From positions 64,001-128,000 of IMG/VR virus record IMGVR_UViG_3300027759_000050: a stretch of 64,000 nucleotides of DNA, one strand, 5' to 3'. A program made the translations under genes and the position numbers. Source of the stretch: a virus. A model generated the notes under the pieces. That model worked only from the letters and a program-made list of their open reading frames with translations, had not been told where the DNA came from and searched no databases. Of this stretch, positions 160 through 24,826 are shown piece after piece (the first letter of the stretch is position 1; every line of letters starts with the position of its first letter).

Positions 160-603
160 TTAGAAACTAAATTTAAGACCAGCAGTGATACGGCTTCCGT
201 TTTCTGCAACAACACGGTCTTGACCAGCTTGGTAACTGTAATCAAGTCCTGCTGAAACTGATTTAGTGATTGGCAAACGAGCACCAATACCAACTACAGC
301 GGCATAACCATCAGAAGATGGGCCTGATTGGCTATCAATAAAAAGAAGACCAAATTTAGCATCAACTGCTACAGGTCCCATTTTTGCTACCTCTACAGCA
401 TTTACCAAACTATAAGAGTCGGCTGTTGTAGAACGATTGAATCCTGCGGTTAGGTCATAACCTTTTACGGTTTCACCTACTGTAACACCCCAAACATTTT
501 GCGTTGAGCTAAGATTAGTGCCATCATTGATACCAACTTCTAAAGCTTGTGCGCTTGCAAATACACCCATAAGAGATGCGATAAGTACGAGTTTTTTAAT
601 CAA
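160..603 (-). CDS. Small outer-membrane beta-barrel protein (OmpA/OmpW/Lom-like)
   Basis: Signal peptide ending AQA, alternating hydrophobic strands, C-terminal beta-signal GLKFSF; AAGGAG RBS upstream. Confidence 0.75.
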   Translation of the reverse strand: MIKKLVLIASLMGVFASAQALEVGINDGTNLSSTQNVWGVTVGETVKGYDLTAGFNRSTTADSYSLVNAVEVAKMGPVAVDAKFGLLFIDSQSGPSSDGYAAVVGIGARLPITKSVSAGLDYSYQAGQDRVVAENGSRITAGLKFSF

Positions 604-629
604 AATTTTCTCCTTTTGTTGAACAAATT

Positions 630-929
630 GCCGACTGATTGGATAATAAGGACAGTCGGCGAAACCTCAGCTTAGCTTAAGCAGCTAGGCGATATGCGGA
701 GTCGTTTGCATTTACGTTTTTTTACTTTTATCGACTATCTGTGTCGGGTAGCCAATTAGTTTACTCATATGTCGGTCGATTACCGTATCATCCCCATCAA
801 AAGCATATTAGTTCTCAGTGACCGATGCCGTTAAATAACACCGATGTATCTAATATGCTTATGGTGGAGATGGAGGGAGTCGAACCCTCGTGTCGCCATC
901 GTTTCAAAAAATCAGTTTACTACCATTAC
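630..929 (-). ncRNA. ssrA: Circularly permuted (two-piece) tmRNA gene
   Basis: Acceptor piece with T-arm GAGGG-TTCGACT-CCCTC and CATCTCC-ACCA (3' end 862) lies upstream of the coding piece starting GGGGATG (795); 7-bp acceptor stem with G3.U; tag ANDSAYRLAA* at 709-677; terminal hairpin 630-660. Confidence 0.92.
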
Positions 930-1022
930 AACACACTTAGGGAGATTCTCACTCCCGTACCCACAATGTGGGAACTTAGTCTAATTGCACAGCCGAGCCA
1001 TGTCCCAGTTCATAAGTGTGTT
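930..1022 (-). ncRNA. Putative structured RNA or leader in front of the tmRNA
   Basis: 10-bp closing stem AACACACTTA/TAAGTGTGTT enclosing CCCAC-ATT-GTGGG and GGGAG-TGAGAAT-CTCCC hairpins. Confidence 0.5.
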
Positions 1023-9347: not shown

Positions 9348-9595
9348 ATTTCTTCCCTGTTAGTCCAATTCTTCCTACATTCTTCTTCTGAGGATTTCAA
9401 ATACAACATACAATCAGAAATGTATTGTATTGGTGTAGTTTCAATTACAACTTCAACCGATTTGTCTTCAATCTTTACAATTGGAACAATTTCAACAATC
9501 TTTTGTTCTACAGGTACAATACAGGTTTTATTATCATCAGTGCAAGCATGAAGTAAAAAACAAATAAGCACAACGGCCAAAATTTTATCAAACAT
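9344..9595 (-). CDS. Putative lipoprotein
   Basis: Signal peptide with LHAC lipobox. Confidence 0.55.
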   Translation of the reverse strand: MFDKILAVVLICFLLHACTDDNKTCIVPVEQKIVEIVPIVKIEDKSVEVVIETTPIQYISDCMLYLKSSEEECRKNWTNREEI

Positions 9596-17186: not shown

Positions 17187-17702
17187 TCATACTTTTTCTC
17201 CTTCGGAATCATCTTCATCCATATTTTCTTCTTCCCAATCTCGAATATAACCAACGATATTAAACATTTCATCCAATTCCTCAGGAATGGTTGCAGCAAC
17301 ATCATCGGCATCACCTTCAAGAGCATACTCATCATTCTGGCCATTTTCGTAGATACCAGCAAAGCCCATGCCAGATTCGTAGTAATAACCTTTGACAGTG
17401 TAACCTTGTTCAGTCAGATAATCATAGAATCGAACAGGAGGTGCCCATGCTGAATCAAATGAAAGGGTTACAGATTCATCGGTGTCCTCGGTGACATAAA
17501 CATCCACATCCCACTTGGTTCCCCAATTAGAAACATTCCAATCATACCAGCTTTCTTCTTCACCGGCAGGCCGAGGAAGCAGGACATTCATAAAATCAGT
17601 TGAAACCTTGGTTTGGTTATTCAGCACGGCCTGACGGAACTCATCCAATTTAGATTTATCGGCATGAGAAACAACAACAACATTAGCGCACCAATTAGGC
17701 AT
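17187..17702 (-). CDS. DUF1281/Api92-like ferredoxin-fold protein
   Basis: MPNWC.N, WYDW...NWGTKWD, FDSAWAPP, YYE.GM.FAG. Confidence 0.8.
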   Translation of the reverse strand: MPNWCANVVVVSHADKSKLDEFRQAVLNNQTKVSTDFMNVLLPRPAGEEESWYDWNVSNWGTKWDVDVYVTEDTDESVTLSFDSAWAPPVRFYDYLTEQGYTVKGYYYESGMGFAGIYENGQNDEYALEGDADDVAATIPEELDEMFNIVGYIRDWEEENMDEDDSEGEKV

Positions 17703-21343: not shown

Positions 21344-21875
21344 ATTATACAGGTGCCATAGAGGATTGTCAAGCACTCATAGTTGCGATCCTAGGATTAT
21401 TGTGCAATATAGTGCATTTTTGTGTCATAAAAACAACAGCCCGCAGGATATGTCGCATTATCATGTAAATGAGAATGATTCTCATCCATATTGTCGCATC
21501 CAGAACATTTTAGCGGAGTTTAGTCTGTGTGTCCGATTTTCCTGTGAATAATCCAGCATTATATCAGAAAATCCGAAGGTTGTCAAGCGTTTTCCGCACA
21601 ATTTTCGCATATTTTTCGCTATTGCTTCGAGGTTCTTCATAGATAAAAACTATCGCGGGTCTCTGAGATGCTCTGAGAATATATCAACCACTCTCCACGT
21701 CCATCCCGCTCATTGCTTCGAATCATGCGTCCATTATACCAGAACCCCTGAGCATTGTCAAGCCCTCCTGCCTATTGTATTCCTCTATCAGCCTCTGAGG
21801 TCTCATAGAGGGACTCTATCGATTCGCCCACAGTCGGTGTGCCTCCATCCTATCACAATCCAGAGCCCCTGTCAA
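21344..21875 (-). promoter_or_regulatory. Four tandem leftward sigma70 promoters (21344-21372, 21558-21586, 21733-21761, 21847-21875)
   Basis: TTGACA-17-TATAAT three times and TTGACA-17-TAGGAT once. Confidence 0.85.
21467..21485. promoter_or_regulatory. Fur box
   Basis: AAATGAGAATGATTCTCAT; perfect 7-1-7 inverted repeat TGAGAAT-G-ATTCTCA (Fur consensus TGATAAT-N-ATTATCA). Confidence 0.7.
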
Positions 21876-21885
21876 GCCCCAGCTG

Positions 21886-21975
21886 GACACTACCTGGCCA
21901 CCTGTTTTTTCGGATAGCTTCGAAAAGCTGCAGCTTTCCGCTGGTTTTGACGGAATCAGGTGGCCAGGTAGTGTC
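21886..21975. repeat. 90-bp dyad element at the transcription divergence point
   Basis: Perfect 19-bp inverted arms (21886-21904, 21957-21975) centred on palindrome AAAGCTGCAGCTTT (21924-21937). Confidence 0.9.
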
Positions 21976-21985
21976 TCACCATTTC

Positions 21986-22037
21986 GCAACCATTGTTGTG
22001 ATTTTTCGCTTGACAATCCCACTGGTTCTGGTATAAT
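21986..22037 (+). promoter_or_regulatory. Rightward sigma70 promoter 1
   Basis: GCAACCATTGTTGT...TTGACA-16-TATAAT-GGCAC. Confidence 0.8.
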
Positions 22038-22044
22038 GGCACCT

Positions 22045-22191
22045 ATGAAAACGACACACCCTACACCACCAGCCACAGGATGCGACACCGGCCTTTGCCA
22101 GGACTATGATAGTGGATTGGCCCGCTGGTTCTCCAGCCGGTTGGGTGCTCTCTATTATTTGAGACTCCATTTCGCAACTAAGGTTGCTTGA
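22045..22191 (+). CDS. 48-aa leaderless ORF (MKTTHPTPP...FATKVA), absent from ORF track
   Basis: ATG 7 nt after TATAAT; stops in the -35 box of the next promoter. Confidence 0.55.
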   Translation: MKTTHPTPPATGCDTGLCQDYDSGLARWFSSRLGALYYLRLHFATKVA

Positions 22192-22216
22192 CATTCCTAC
22201 CAATCCATTGTATAAT
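22174..22216 (+). promoter_or_regulatory. Rightward sigma70 promoter 2 plus operator
   Basis: GCAACTAAGGTTGC-TTGACA-17-TATAAT. Confidence 0.9.
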
Positions 22217-22246
22217 GGCACCACTTAAACGAAACAAGGACGCAAA

Positions 22247-22558
22247 ATGATAATCTCCGAATATGATGCTCTGCAAAGCTACGACGAAATGCTGGATGAC
22301 GTATACCCTGAGGTTACTCTGGGCTTCTCCTCCTTCCTGCCTTCCCGTGTGCTGAAGGAAATGGACCGTACGGCCTACAATGAGGGTTTCCATGACTATG
22401 TAAATTCTATGGCTGACGACGGCACCTACGTTGAAGGCTACACCGATGACCTGGAAGAATCCGTCGATGATTCTATGGACGGTGACCACGATTCGGCCAT
22501 GGCCTCTGCGGGCTTTGGTACGGATGAGGATTATGGTTCTTTTGGTAATGAGGAATAA
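22247..22558 (+). CDS. Acidic early protein (DSMDGDHDSAMASAGFGTDEDYG family)
   Basis: AAGGA RBS; very acidic, possible DNA mimic. Confidence 0.8.
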   Translation: MIISEYDALQSYDEMLDDVYPEVTLGFSSFLPSRVLKEMDRTAYNEGFHDYVNSMADDGTYVEGYTDDLEESVDDSMDGDHDSAMASAGFGTDEDYGSFGNEE

Positions 22559-22559
22559 A

Positions 22560-22688
22560 ATGAAATTTTTAATTGGTATGGCTTTTGGTATCATAGTGGC
22601 TACGGTTGGTTTTACTGGCTTTGCTCAGTTGGCCGACCATGGTCTGGTCAAGGTCAAGGCTGCGGCCACTGAGGTGATTGCCAAATAG
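22560..22688 (+). CDS. Small single-TM protein
   Basis: MKFLIGMAFGIIVATVGF...; GAGGA RBS. Confidence 0.7.
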   Translation: MKFLIGMAFGIIVATVGFTGFAQLADHGLVKVKAAATEVIAK

Positions 22689-22697
22689 TTCCAAATC

Positions 22698-22739
22698 GCA
22701 ACTATAGGTTGTGACAGGAAAGACCAACTCTGGTATAAT
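22698..22739 (+). promoter_or_regulatory. Rightward sigma70 promoter 3 plus operator variant
   Basis: GCAACTATAGGTT-GTGACA-17-TATAAT. Confidence 0.8.
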
Positions 22740-22760
22740 GGCACCATCTAAACGAAACAA

Positions 22761-22846
22761 GGTTGATCCAAAAAGCAAGACACGCAAAACGGAACCCACG
22801 CGAAAGCAAAAAGGGAACCACGCAAAAAGTCAAGCACGGATCAACC
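22761..22846 (+). ncRNA. Structured A-rich leader or small RNA
   Basis: 9-bp stem GGTTGATCC/GGATCAACC enclosing three CACGC(A/G)AAA repeats. Confidence 0.5.
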
Positions 22847-22866
22847 ACCTAATTTAAGGACTCCAA

Positions 22867-23235
22867 ATGACCGAAATGACCCGCACCGAAGAGCTTCAAT
22901 CCATCCACTGGGATATGTACAAGGACGCTCATGGCTTCCGTCCTCGCCATGTAAATACCCTCCACTGGACCGAGGAAATGTTCTTGGCTGAATTTGAGGC
23001 TCTCGAGCTGGTCATCCGCCAAGAGGAGCTGCAGCGTGCCTTCGCTGAAGGTAAAGCCGCTGCTCGCTTCGAGGCTCGCGTGGATGACCTGATGGCCACT
23101 GGTGCTAAGGATGCCGAGACGGCCATCCGTTGGATCATGGACGCCGAAGGCGCTAATGGCGACCAAGGCTTCGCTGAGTACCTGCTGGGCCTGCCCTACG
23201 GTTACATTACCAAATTCGCAACCAAAGTTGCTTGA
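22867..23235 (+). CDS. Conserved early protein (D.YKDAHGFRPR family)
   Basis: AAGGA RBS; motif common in T4-like early regions. Confidence 0.8.
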   Translation: MTEMTRTEELQSIHWDMYKDAHGFRPRHVNTLHWTEEMFLAEFEALELVIRQEELQRAFAEGKAAARFEARVDDLMATGAKDAETAIRWIMDAEGANGDQGFAEYLLGLPYGYITKFATKVA

Positions 23236-23260
23236 CTTTTCTCTCAACCGGGTGTATAAT
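23218..23260 (+). promoter_or_regulatory. Rightward sigma70 promoter 4 plus operator
   Basis: GCAACCAAAGTTGC-TTGACT-17-TATAAT. Confidence 0.85.
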
Positions 23261-23293
23261 ACATCCATCGTAAACAAAAAAGGAAACTTTAAA

Positions 23294-23563
23294 ATGGCTA
23301 AATCAAAATCTTTTCTCGGTTCTGCTCTCGCACTCAAGCGTGAAGCTCTGAAGGCTCTCAAAGCTGAAGTCGCTCAAATGGCTAAACAATATGCTCATGA
23401 GCGTTTCGCTATCAAGCAAGATAAATTGGTTATGGCTGCTGCGCGCAAGGAAGCTGCTATCGCAAAAGCGAAAGCTAAACTGGAAAAGCTGACTGCTCCA
23501 GTCGGTGCGAAAGCTCTCAAAGCGAATCGCAAACCATCCGCAGTTATTGTGACCAAGGGCTGA
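23294..23563 (+). CDS. Lys/Ala-rich basic early protein (histone-like composition)
   Basis: AAGGA RBS; GCT/AAA/CGT-biased codons. Confidence 0.75.
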   Translation: MAKSKSFLGSALALKREALKALKAEVAQMAKQYAHERFAIKQDKLVMAAARKEAAIAKAKAKLEKLTAPVGAKALKANRKPSAVIVTKG

Positions 23564-23596
23564 TTATATCACAAGGGGCTTGCTTTGTCAAGCCCC
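23563..23596 (-). promoter_or_regulatory. Antisense sigma70 promoter overlapping a hairpin
   Basis: TTGACA-17-TATAAT on minus; GGGGCTTG/CAAGCCCC stem. Confidence 0.7.
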
Positions 23597-23694
23597 CATA
23601 TAGAAGCATACTGCTTGCCTGACCGAAAAAGTCGTGGTAAACTATAAGAGAAAGAGGTTCGAATCCTCGGGACTGGTAGTGTGCTTCTATATGG
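23596..23694 (+). ncRNA. tRNA-mimic-like small RNA (long closing stem plus T-arm)
   Basis: 19-bp stem with two G.U pairs; GAGG-TTCGAAT-CCTC at 23654-23668; GTGGTAA D-loop-like stretch. Confidence 0.65.
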
Positions 23695-23710
23695 TAACCA
23701 AGGACATAAA

Positions 23711-23941
23711 ATGAACGAAAATTACAAAGCTGACCTGATGCAACGCTTACAAGGACAAACCTTGACCCGTGCCGAACTATTCAAGGATGACCCTGCTTCC
23801 CTAATCGATGCCGTCCTGGATCAGATTAAAACCGACATAGCCATGGGTGACCTGATGGCCATCGAGGGGCTCCTGATGAATTGCCGCGAGGAGGCTCTGC
23901 TGGGATACCTGCCTGAAGAATTCCTAGGATCGCAACTATAG
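23711..23941 (+). CDS. Early hypothetical protein
   Basis: AAGGA RBS before ATG 23711. Confidence 0.7.
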   Translation: MNENYKADLMQRLQGQTLTRAELFKDDPASLIDAVLDQIKTDIAMGDLMAIEGLLMNCREEALLGYLPEEFLGSQL

Positions 23942-23973
23942 GTTGTGACATTCCGACCGAACCTGTGTATAAT
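23932..23973 (+). promoter_or_regulatory. Rightward sigma70 promoter 5 plus operator variant
   Basis: GCAACTATAGGTT-GTGACA-17-TATAAT-GGCAC. Confidence 0.8.
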
Positions 23974-24003
23974 GGCACCATCTAAACGAAACTAGGAAGC
24001 AAA

Positions 24004-24237
24004 ATGTTCAAGACACAATCCGCAGCAAGCAAAGTCCGTACCCTCCGTATGCAAAACCTCCTGAGGGACTTCGGTGACGCTTCGGTTAAAAAGCACAAGA
24101 CCTACGCCTTCTCGGCAGGTTACATGGAGAGCACGGTCCTGTCCATGTTCTCGGAGATGACCAAGGCACAGCAAGAGCATTGGCTTGAGTGCTTCGCGGC
24201 TCGTACCTCTGACGCTATCAAAGCTTTGGAGGCATAA
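24004..24237 (+). CDS. Early hypothetical protein (YAF.AGY.ES motif)
   Basis: AGGA RBS. Confidence 0.75.
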   Translation: MFKTQSAASKVRTLRMQNLLRDFGDASVKKHKTYAFSAGYMESTVLSMFSEMTKAQQEHWLECFAARTSDAIKALEA

Positions 24238-24458
24238 TATGGACAAGGACATGGAGAAGACCTTGACTGGTCTGGCATTCACCTTGACCTACCTGTTGGT
24301 CTTGGTGGTAGTGGTAATGGATACAGTTTACTGGAGGGCAGGATAATGGCATGGTTGGATATGGTTAATGTTCTGATGGGTTATGATATGGCTCGGAGGA
24401 TCGGGCTCGCTCTGGATTGCTCTGTGGCTGGCAAGCTAATCCACAAGGCTAATCAGGC

Positions 24459-24487
24459 AGTATAACACAGGTGGTGGGGGAGGTCAA
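24459..24487 (-). promoter_or_regulatory. Antisense sigma70-like promoter at the end of the rightward arm
   Basis: TTGACC-17-TATACT with extended TG. Confidence 0.55.
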
Positions 24488-24826
24488 GCCCCCACTGCTT
24501 GGAAGCACAGTGGTCGGCAGGGGCTGGCAGCAGTGCCGGCGACAGGCTATGGCGATATGGCGGTGCGTGCTAAGAAAAAGTTCTCCATGGCGAAACTCTT
24601 TTCTTTTCCATTTTATTTTCTGGCCCCTCCAAGCAGTTTTCGAATTTTCACTATTTTCGCCTCCTAATTTTTTTTCAGGAGGCCGCAGAGGCCCTAATGT
24701 TTTTTCCTCTTAGTGGTTCTAGCAACACCTGATGGTTTCACTCTCTTGGTCGATGTACTGACCTTACCTGTCTTTCTATTTGTGGTCTTTGTGGTTCTAA
24801 AAGAACCCGCAATCTTTACCATCTTC

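Follow-up and report, generated by a model that had tools for sequence, protein, structure and literature searches.

A 90-bp palindrome with conserved arms in the early-promoter hub of an uncultured T4-type phage is a candidate accessory DNA site

Results

Genome context and the early-promoter hub

The analyzed stretch of DNA (the window, 64,000 nucleotides) comprises bases 64001-128000 of a 160,679-bp IMG/VR virus record. Proteins encoded by this genome include a T4-type Gp23 major capsid protein (E = 5e-144), a family B DNA polymerase, a DnaB-like helicase, and a ribonucleotide reductase. The CobT-like protein has its nearest counterparts, at about 34% identity, in pelagimyoviruses and cyanomyoviruses of the T4 type, which are distant relatives. 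The assembly ends show a 127-bp direct repeat at coordinate 1, which suggests a circular or permuted assembly, as is expected for a T4-type phage with headful packaging. The source is the complete genome of an uncultured phage, of T4 type by its Gp23 capsid protein. ARAGORN additionally called a tmRNA gene on the minus strand (window 586-954; tag peptide ANDSAYRLAA), whose flag, tmRNA*, we take to mean the permuted form; a tmRNA gene in a T4-type phage may hint at the host lineage.

Nearly all genes are carried by the minus strand. In their midst lies a small plus-strand module of elevated GC content at 22.2-24.3 kb, so that transcription diverges at its border. Measured over 22000-24500, this early module has 48% GC as compared to 35-39% in the adjoining DNA, a contrast that suggests a different origin or different constraints. 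The 2 kb surrounding the palindromic element described below contain 21 sigma-70 promoter-like sites, versus 7.2 expected, including five with 12/12 consensus positions. Many of the sigma-70 promoters of this hub are abutted by a GCAAC-N4-GTTG(C) stem-loop, which adjoins -35 boxes on both strands (21984-22037, 22172-22216, 23218-23260, and others), and we read these repeated stem-loop/promoter units as terminator/promoter cassettes of the PeSL (promoter-early stem-loop) type and not as operators. The promoter arrays to the left and right of the element are inverted repeats of each other.

Other small features were noticed in and around the hub. A promoter-to-promoter unit of about 145 nt on the plus strand (22044-22187) holds at most a 48-aa leaderless ORF; it is absent from G001, a complete relative, where the first promoter directly drives an ORF starting MI(I/L)SEY.... 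After leftward early promoters, three lineages share a conserved 5' transcript segment, ATTCGAA(A)GCA...GGGATGGAC (21640-21735 on the minus strand of the window, 9455-9500 in the related locus L006, and 1512-1560 in the related locus L031), a candidate for a small RNA or short-peptide leader. Three other elements of 94-99 nt with perfect stems of 13-18 bp (genome 133212-133305 and 136489-136585, window 23596-23694) adjoin tRNA-like sequence, and the last of them includes the T-arm-like GGTTCGAATCC; their interiors are asymmetric and they are unrelated to the 90-bp dyad.

Anatomy of the palindromic element

The element occupies positions 21886-21975. An original prediction, made from the sequence letters, had claimed perfect 19-bp inverted arms and a co-axial central palindrome, and both are confirmed. 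A repeat search returned a left arm at 21886-21904 and a right arm at 21957-21975 that is its reverse complement, each 19 nt long and perfectly complementary to the other; lengthened to 22 nt, the arms are 95% complementary and separated by 46 nt. The 52-bp centre (21905-21956) harbors a perfect 14-bp core palindrome (21924-21937) centred on CTGCAG, which extends to 20 bp (21921-21940) with one mismatched pair and shares its axis, 21930/21931, with the arms. Among inverted repeats with a spacer of at most 120 nt, this is the longest in the whole genome, and the longest arm in each of 40 block-wise, composition-preserving shuffles reached 11-15 nt versus the 19 nt of the element. As single-stranded DNA, either strand of the element folds at about -29 kcal/mol versus -9.5 +/- 2.3 kcal/mol for shuffles (z about -8). 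The palindrome is real and not a product of chance.

By inspection, the arms are more GC-rich than the genome, and their motif has no further occurrence in it. The centre contains large unpaired stretches, which should make cruciform extrusion costly for this version of the element (type A, below); its mismatches are A-C in the top strand and G-U in the bottom strand. By eye, no convincing DnaA box, parS, dif, attC-like end, or sigma-54 or other alternative promoter was found in the element.

The nearest -35 boxes flank the element and point outward, as originally described. To the left, the -35 box (21875-21870) of a promoter-like site on the minus strand (21847-21875, TTGACA-17-TAGGAT) is 10 nt away from the element. 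To the right, a consensus promoter on the plus strand (22010-22037, TTGACA-16-TATAAT), preceded by a PeSL-like GCAAC-N4-GTTG stem-loop at 21984-22001, has its -35 box at 22010, 34 nt from the element.

Copies in related phages

Arm scans of viral and metagenome collections located the element at eight loci, two of which (L006 and L021) are the same contig, giving seven distinct further copies. Every copy is 90 bp long, occurs once per contig, and lies within the same promoter hub. Type A comprises this window and L027, with centres that differ by 3 substitutions. In L031 (type A'), the centre matches that of the window at 37/52 positions and one arm carries 3 uncompensated changes. Type B is divided into B1 (L006, L024, and L026) and B2 (L022 and L025). 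Conserved genes of type-B phages have about 70% nucleotide identity to those of the present genome, and the flanks of type-A and type-B elements align at 57-63% only.

The 18-nt arm core (21887-21904 in the left arm) is invariant across all type-A and type-B copies. Arm cores of the two types are identical at 36/36 positions as compared to 30/52 positions of the centres (Fisher P = 1.6e-6), and no compensatory substitutions were found in the arms between type A and type B. Since the cores are invariant without compensatory change, they are probably read out as sequence and not just as a pairing stem, and selection acts on the arm sequence itself rather than on mere pairing. The centre diverges fast and retains its dyad symmetry: mirrored positions pair in 14/26 cases here and in 18-19/26 in type B (P from 3e-3 to 1e-6), on the same axis in every lineage. 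The type-B core is 16 bp long, is centred on CTCGAG, and shares its axis with the CTGCAG core. At the two innermost positions altered between these cores, both sides have changed together (GCTGCAGC versus CCTCGAGG).

A motif starting ATACTTGACC adjoins the element in type B and in L031; it is not enriched in this window. No neighboring gene is common to all element contexts. The metagenome contig L023 carries a 98-bp palindrome (1237-1334) with perfect 33-nt arms, whose inner 12 nt it has in common with the element arm, in an unrelated GC-rich context; it is probably a chance hairpin. L023 and L119 were both taken for chance hairpins and not for copies, as only the inner 10-12 nt of the arms match in GC-rich, unrelated contexts.

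Placement relative to promoters

In both type-A copies (the window and L027), 7-10 nt separate the element from the -35 box of the leftward TTGACA-17-TAGGAT promoter, upstream of which it lies. In L031, the homologous promoter is found on the opposite side and is directed into the element; 7 nt separate the end of its -10 box from the arm, and transcription diverges some 40-80 bp away. Leftward, the distance to the -35 box is 10 nt here versus about 26 nt in type B, and rightward it varies between 24 and 34 nt among the copies. Three junction contexts of the element can thus be told apart, among them both sides of one and the same TAGGAT promoter, and the element, or the cassettes around it, has been shuffled. 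Because promoter spacing is not fixed, there is no conserved geometry of a classical activator or repressor. The view that the element marks the exact point of divergence holds for the window and for type B, where the nearest promoter-like sites point outward, but not for L031, whose copy sits inside a transcribed promoter array. Likewise, the expectation that the element is unlikely to be transcribed from the nearest -35 boxes agrees with the absence of any predicted promoter reading into it in the window and in type B, yet the L031 promoter does read in.

Inversion of the centre

The 52-bp centres of B2 (L022/L025) and B1 (L006/L024/L026) agree at 51/52 positions when one is inverted and at 37/52 in direct comparison, with flanks in the same orientation. 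Since the B2 centre is the reverse complement of the B1 centre within unchanged flanks, at least one inversion between the arms has happened within type B. L022 and L025, which derive from two samples, are identical and of one orientation, and L006 and L024, whose left flanks are 99% identical, likewise have a single orientation; the flip looks like a rare evolutionary event and not like a fast phase switch. The phage genome lacks genes for a serine recombinase (PF00239), a tyrosine recombinase (PF00589), a protelomerase (PF16684), and a Y1 (RAYT) transposase (PF01797), and a search of it for the endonuclease VII family was negative. The suggestion of a resolvase-type site finds no backing in a genome that has neither a serine or tyrosine recombinase nor a protelomerase. 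In chloroplast DNA, the spacer between short inverted repeats can flip without a dedicated enzyme, as is well known from hairpin-associated small inversions (PMC12371153), and T4-type recombination operates on homology patches under 50 bp (PMC2839356).

Absence from relatives

The complete 170.5-kb relative G001 covers 76% of the present genome at 86.7% nucleotide identity, and a nearby 249-aa protein is identical in the two genomes. In the alignment, window positions 21700-21880 match G001 at 94% and 21979-22037 at 97%, and both blocks directly abut in G001. The 99 bp at 21881-21979 are therefore present here and absent there, with boundaries ambiguous by one C. No target-site duplication was found at the empty site of G001, which shows at most one or two C of microhomology, and no arm-like sequence with up to 3 mismatches exists in the complete G001 genome. 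We further retrieved 80 loci of more distant relatives via the neighboring 249-aa gene (72-100% amino-acid identity). Arms within 4 mismatches were present in 0/80 of these loci, and none of the six long inverted repeats that they contain in total was similar or similarly placed. Near and distant DNA searches with a 1.1-kb region yielded no match among public phage records. A paired-arm scan of the genomes of 185,579 species gave 0 matches, and the seven matches of a single-arm scan of bacterial genomes, about as many as chance predicts, are unrelated and lie in GC-rich, apparently coding sequence.

Absence from complete G001 and from the loci of 80 relatives implies that the element is dispensable and rare, and it is restricted to a small clade of uncultured T4-type phages. 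Conservation of symmetry among relatives had been put forward as a check on the original prediction. The dyad is kept in all element-bearing lineages, yet the element as such is missing from G001 and occurs in 0/80 of the wider loci. Two further checks, for an inflection of GC skew and for genome ends at the element, were likewise negative: the skew shows no inflection there, and the assembly ends are far away.

A comparison for genes that element-bearing genomes have and G001 lacks yielded 12 ORFs, only one of which (DUF1281_C) is common to both the genome of L031 and a type-B locus. In the window, this gene (17187-17702, minus strand) encodes a 171-aa DUF1281_C (Api92-like ferredoxin-like) protein, which is also found in the element-bearing relatives G005 and L025 and has no counterpart in G001. 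As a cognate factor it is a weak candidate, the association being too thinly sampled to count. A coding role of the element was also considered and rejected: a minus-strand ORF crosses it here, in L006, and in L031, with arms giving similar peptides, and by inspection a TGA closes the frame in the flipped B2. This reading is further weakened by ORF starts that differ and overlap promoters.

Discussion

It is tempting to regard the palindrome as a protein-recognised, non-essential accessory DNA site of the early-promoter hub, with the arms as its putative recognition elements. We favor this reading tentatively and with somewhat less than even confidence. It best fits the combination of invariant arms, a centre that is free to change within its symmetry, a single copy at a single locus, and dispensability. 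The two 18-bp arm cores would be paired, inverted recognition sites for a putative DNA-binding protein of the phage or its host, which might read them in duplex form or within the stem of an extruded hairpin, and sequence-specific selection would keep them constant. The 52-bp centre would be a quickly evolving spacer, whose dyad symmetry may be kept or restored by conversion between its halves and which would occasionally be flipped through recombination between the arms. The site might serve to modulate or insulate the divergent early promoters, for example by absorbing negative supercoils of the outward-firing promoter arrays or by binding a regulator or a structure-specific factor; starting replication or packaging would not belong to its role. 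One argument against a protein-recognised site is that the genome contains no arm motif outside the element, an uncommon situation for a regulator. In addition, conserved terminal repeats, a variable interior, and presence/absence polymorphism also fit a mobile element. A site acting at the level of DNA, the class originally proposed, is still the likeliest, and recombination across the arms is real, given the centre that is inverted between sister lineages. The more specific proposals of an essential origin, packaging site, terminus, or resolvase site are, however, unsupported.

The main rival to a protein-recognised site is a mobile palindrome that is selfish and non-autonomous (MITE- or REPIN-like) and hops within the hub and between phage lineages by means of a transposase acting in trans. 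Such an element would explain the 18-19-bp terminal inverted repeats and the constant size of 90 bp, the identical ends around a variable interior, the empty site in G001, the different junctions on both sides of the same TAGGAT promoter, and the patchy spread among relatives, and MITEs are known to occur in phages (PMC11602168). We nevertheless consider it unlikely, as a target-site duplication is absent at every junction, each genome or contig has one copy and none elsewhere, and the phage genome lacks a Y1 or any other recombinase gene. The 6/6 phage-derived metagenome matches share one hub and one phage clade (a seventh match, L023, is the chance-like hairpin), and the paired arms occur in 0 bacterial genomes among 185,579 species and the seven single 18-mer matches in bacteria lie in unrelated, GC-rich, apparently coding sequence. 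An origin as a MITE or REPIN of the host was rejected on these paired-arm and chance-level single-arm results together with the missing junction duplication. Alternatively, the element could be a neutral by-product, i.e., an inverted duplication that arose during exchange between divergent promoter cassettes and is now decaying. That the flanking promoter arrays are mutual inverted repeats, that the centre is degenerate, and that G001 has lost the element without obvious cost would agree with this scenario. It is very improbable, however, in view of arm cores that are identical at 36/36 positions across lineages with largely unalignable centres and flanks, a length of exactly 90 bp in all lineages, and an arm sequence unrelated to the promoter cassettes.

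Other explanations assign a function to the hairpin itself. A dedicated hairpin or cruciform site could be extruded by supercoiling from the outward-facing early promoter arrays and have its arms read by protein; it would then provide an accessory site of initiation or recombination, or insulate the early hub topologically, with the flip as a footprint of processing. We regard this as distinctly unlikely. An accessory replication origin or recombination hotspot, at which divergent transcription generates negative supercoiling and the extruded hairpins are nicked or cut to start recombination-dependent replication, would be in keeping with a position between strong divergent promoters, a co-axial core palindrome that could nucleate extrusion, and highly mosaic surroundings. 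In T4, each single origin can be dispensed with, and origins vary among T4-type phages, so that absence from relatives alone does not disprove an accessory origin. Yet most relatives are devoid of the element, its placement relative to promoters varies, no iterons were seen in it, and no endonuclease VII family gene was found. T4-type origins such as oriF and oriG consist of a promoter followed by an AT-rich R-loop element, while by inspection the palindrome has no AT-rich unwinding element, its arms are GC-richer than the genome, and there is no skew signal. An accessory origin, perhaps of an unconventional kind, keeps a low probability. A slim chance remains for an RNA function, in which a transcribed 90-nt hairpin would stabilise a 5' end, offer a site to RNase III, or act as a small RNA. 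The TTGACA-17-TAGGAT promoter of L031 ends 7 nt before the element, which would start the transcript at the base of the hairpin, either strand folds strongly, and the A-C mismatches of the type-A centre become G-U on the bottom strand. But no predicted promoter reads into the element in the window and in type B, and the sole transcribed copy, in L031, has a degraded arm with three uncompensated changes. Moreover, a flip of the centre would alter the RNA, conservation of the arms without compensatory change favors sequence read-out over structure, and no Rfam covariance model matched the element at E <= 1. Finally, conserved arms around a palindromic core resemble telRL- or res-type sites and a centre in both orientations recalls flip-flop hairpin telomeres, which could point to an essential role in packaging (pac/cos), as a terminus of replication, or as the target of a protelomerase or resolvase. 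This view is largely refuted and is left with hardly any probability. The element is absent from complete G001, whose flanks match at 94-97%, and from 80 relatives, its position relative to promoters is not fixed, the 127-bp direct end repeat is far from it, and protelomerase, serine recombinase, and tyrosine recombinase genes are lacking. A classical invertase synapse requires a segment longer than 52 bp, and orientation is stable within a strain across samples (L022 is identical to L025, and L006 is close to L024).

To our knowledge, hardly any work has addressed non-coding DNA signals of T4-type hyperplastic regions other than PeSL promoter/terminator cassettes. The element described here is clearly under selection, yet dispensable and narrowly distributed, and the functions proposed for it are putative. 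It is compact and well delimited, and with a natural knockout relative and one documented flip it offers an easy experimental target. Should a protein read its arms, this would be a new regulator or structure-specific factor acting in the early transcription or recombination of the phage; should the element prove mobile, it would be a rare example of a palindromic element that is carried by a phage and leaves no duplicated target. More generally, a striking palindrome at a point of transcription divergence is by itself no evidence for an origin or a packaging site.

Comparison with known systems

The element falls outside the PeSL, MITE, REPIN, telRL, invertase-switch, and terminator families, and partially resembles several of them. 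PeSL cassettes were described from hyperplastic regions of T4-type phages by Arbiol et al. 2010 (PMC2839356) and Comeau et al. 2014 (PMC4122927), where recombination between cassettes causes indels and shuffling of small non-essential units. The present locus is similar in that indel boundaries coincide with the edges of cassettes and that relatives differ by the shuffling of small non-essential units. However, a PeSL combines a sigma-70-like early promoter with a short terminator stem-loop, whereas 21886-21975 contains no promoter-like site and no short GC stem-loop; it is a single-copy 90-bp dyad with invariant arms that lies between cassettes, and PeSL-like units flank it. Intrinsic terminators combine a GC-rich stem of a few to about 20 bp with a small loop and a 3' U tract, whereas the element has a 52-nt loop and no T run after the right arm, and only a weak 5-bp sub-hairpin was flagged.

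By definition (PMC11602168), MITEs measure 50-800 bp and carry terminal inverted repeats no shorter than 10-15 bp, which agrees with the perfect 19-bp arms and 90-bp length observed here. With bacterial MITEs and REPIN/BIME palindromes the element shares terminal inverted repeats of 18-19 bp, a size below 100 bp, a variable interior, and presence/absence polymorphism, and like a REPIN it can form a long hairpin. In contrast to these families, it is non-repetitive, with a single copy per genome or contig at one locus of one phage clade and no paired arms in bacteria that could mark a source element. The target-site duplication of 2-10 bp typical of MITEs is missing from the junctions of the window, L027, L031, and type B when compared to the empty site of G001. 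Unlike in REPIN/RAYT systems, no RAYT (PF01797) or other transposase is present in the phage genome.

Outer inverted repeats around a palindromic core, with a centre that exists in two inverse-complement forms, are also features of telRL of N15 and PY54 and of the flip-flop termini of poxviruses and parvoviruses. Here, however, such an arrangement is an internal site in a circularly assembled T4-type genome that has its end repeat at coordinate 1 and encodes neither PF16684 nor PF00589, and the complete relative does without it. Invertible switches of the Hin/Gin or FimB/E type likewise have a segment between inverted repeats in both orientations, as seen for B1 and B2 (51/52), but they come with a cognate recombinase and mixed orientations, whereas this genome lacks PF00239 and PF00589 and each strain shows one orientation in two samples. 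Hairpin-associated small inversions of chloroplast non-coding DNA (Kelchner & Wendel 1996, cited in PMC12371153) resemble the flip in that a spacer occurs in both orientations among close relatives without a dedicated recombinase; they differ from it in that the flipped segment here is 52 bp long, is itself quasi-palindromic, and resides in a recombination-proficient phage.
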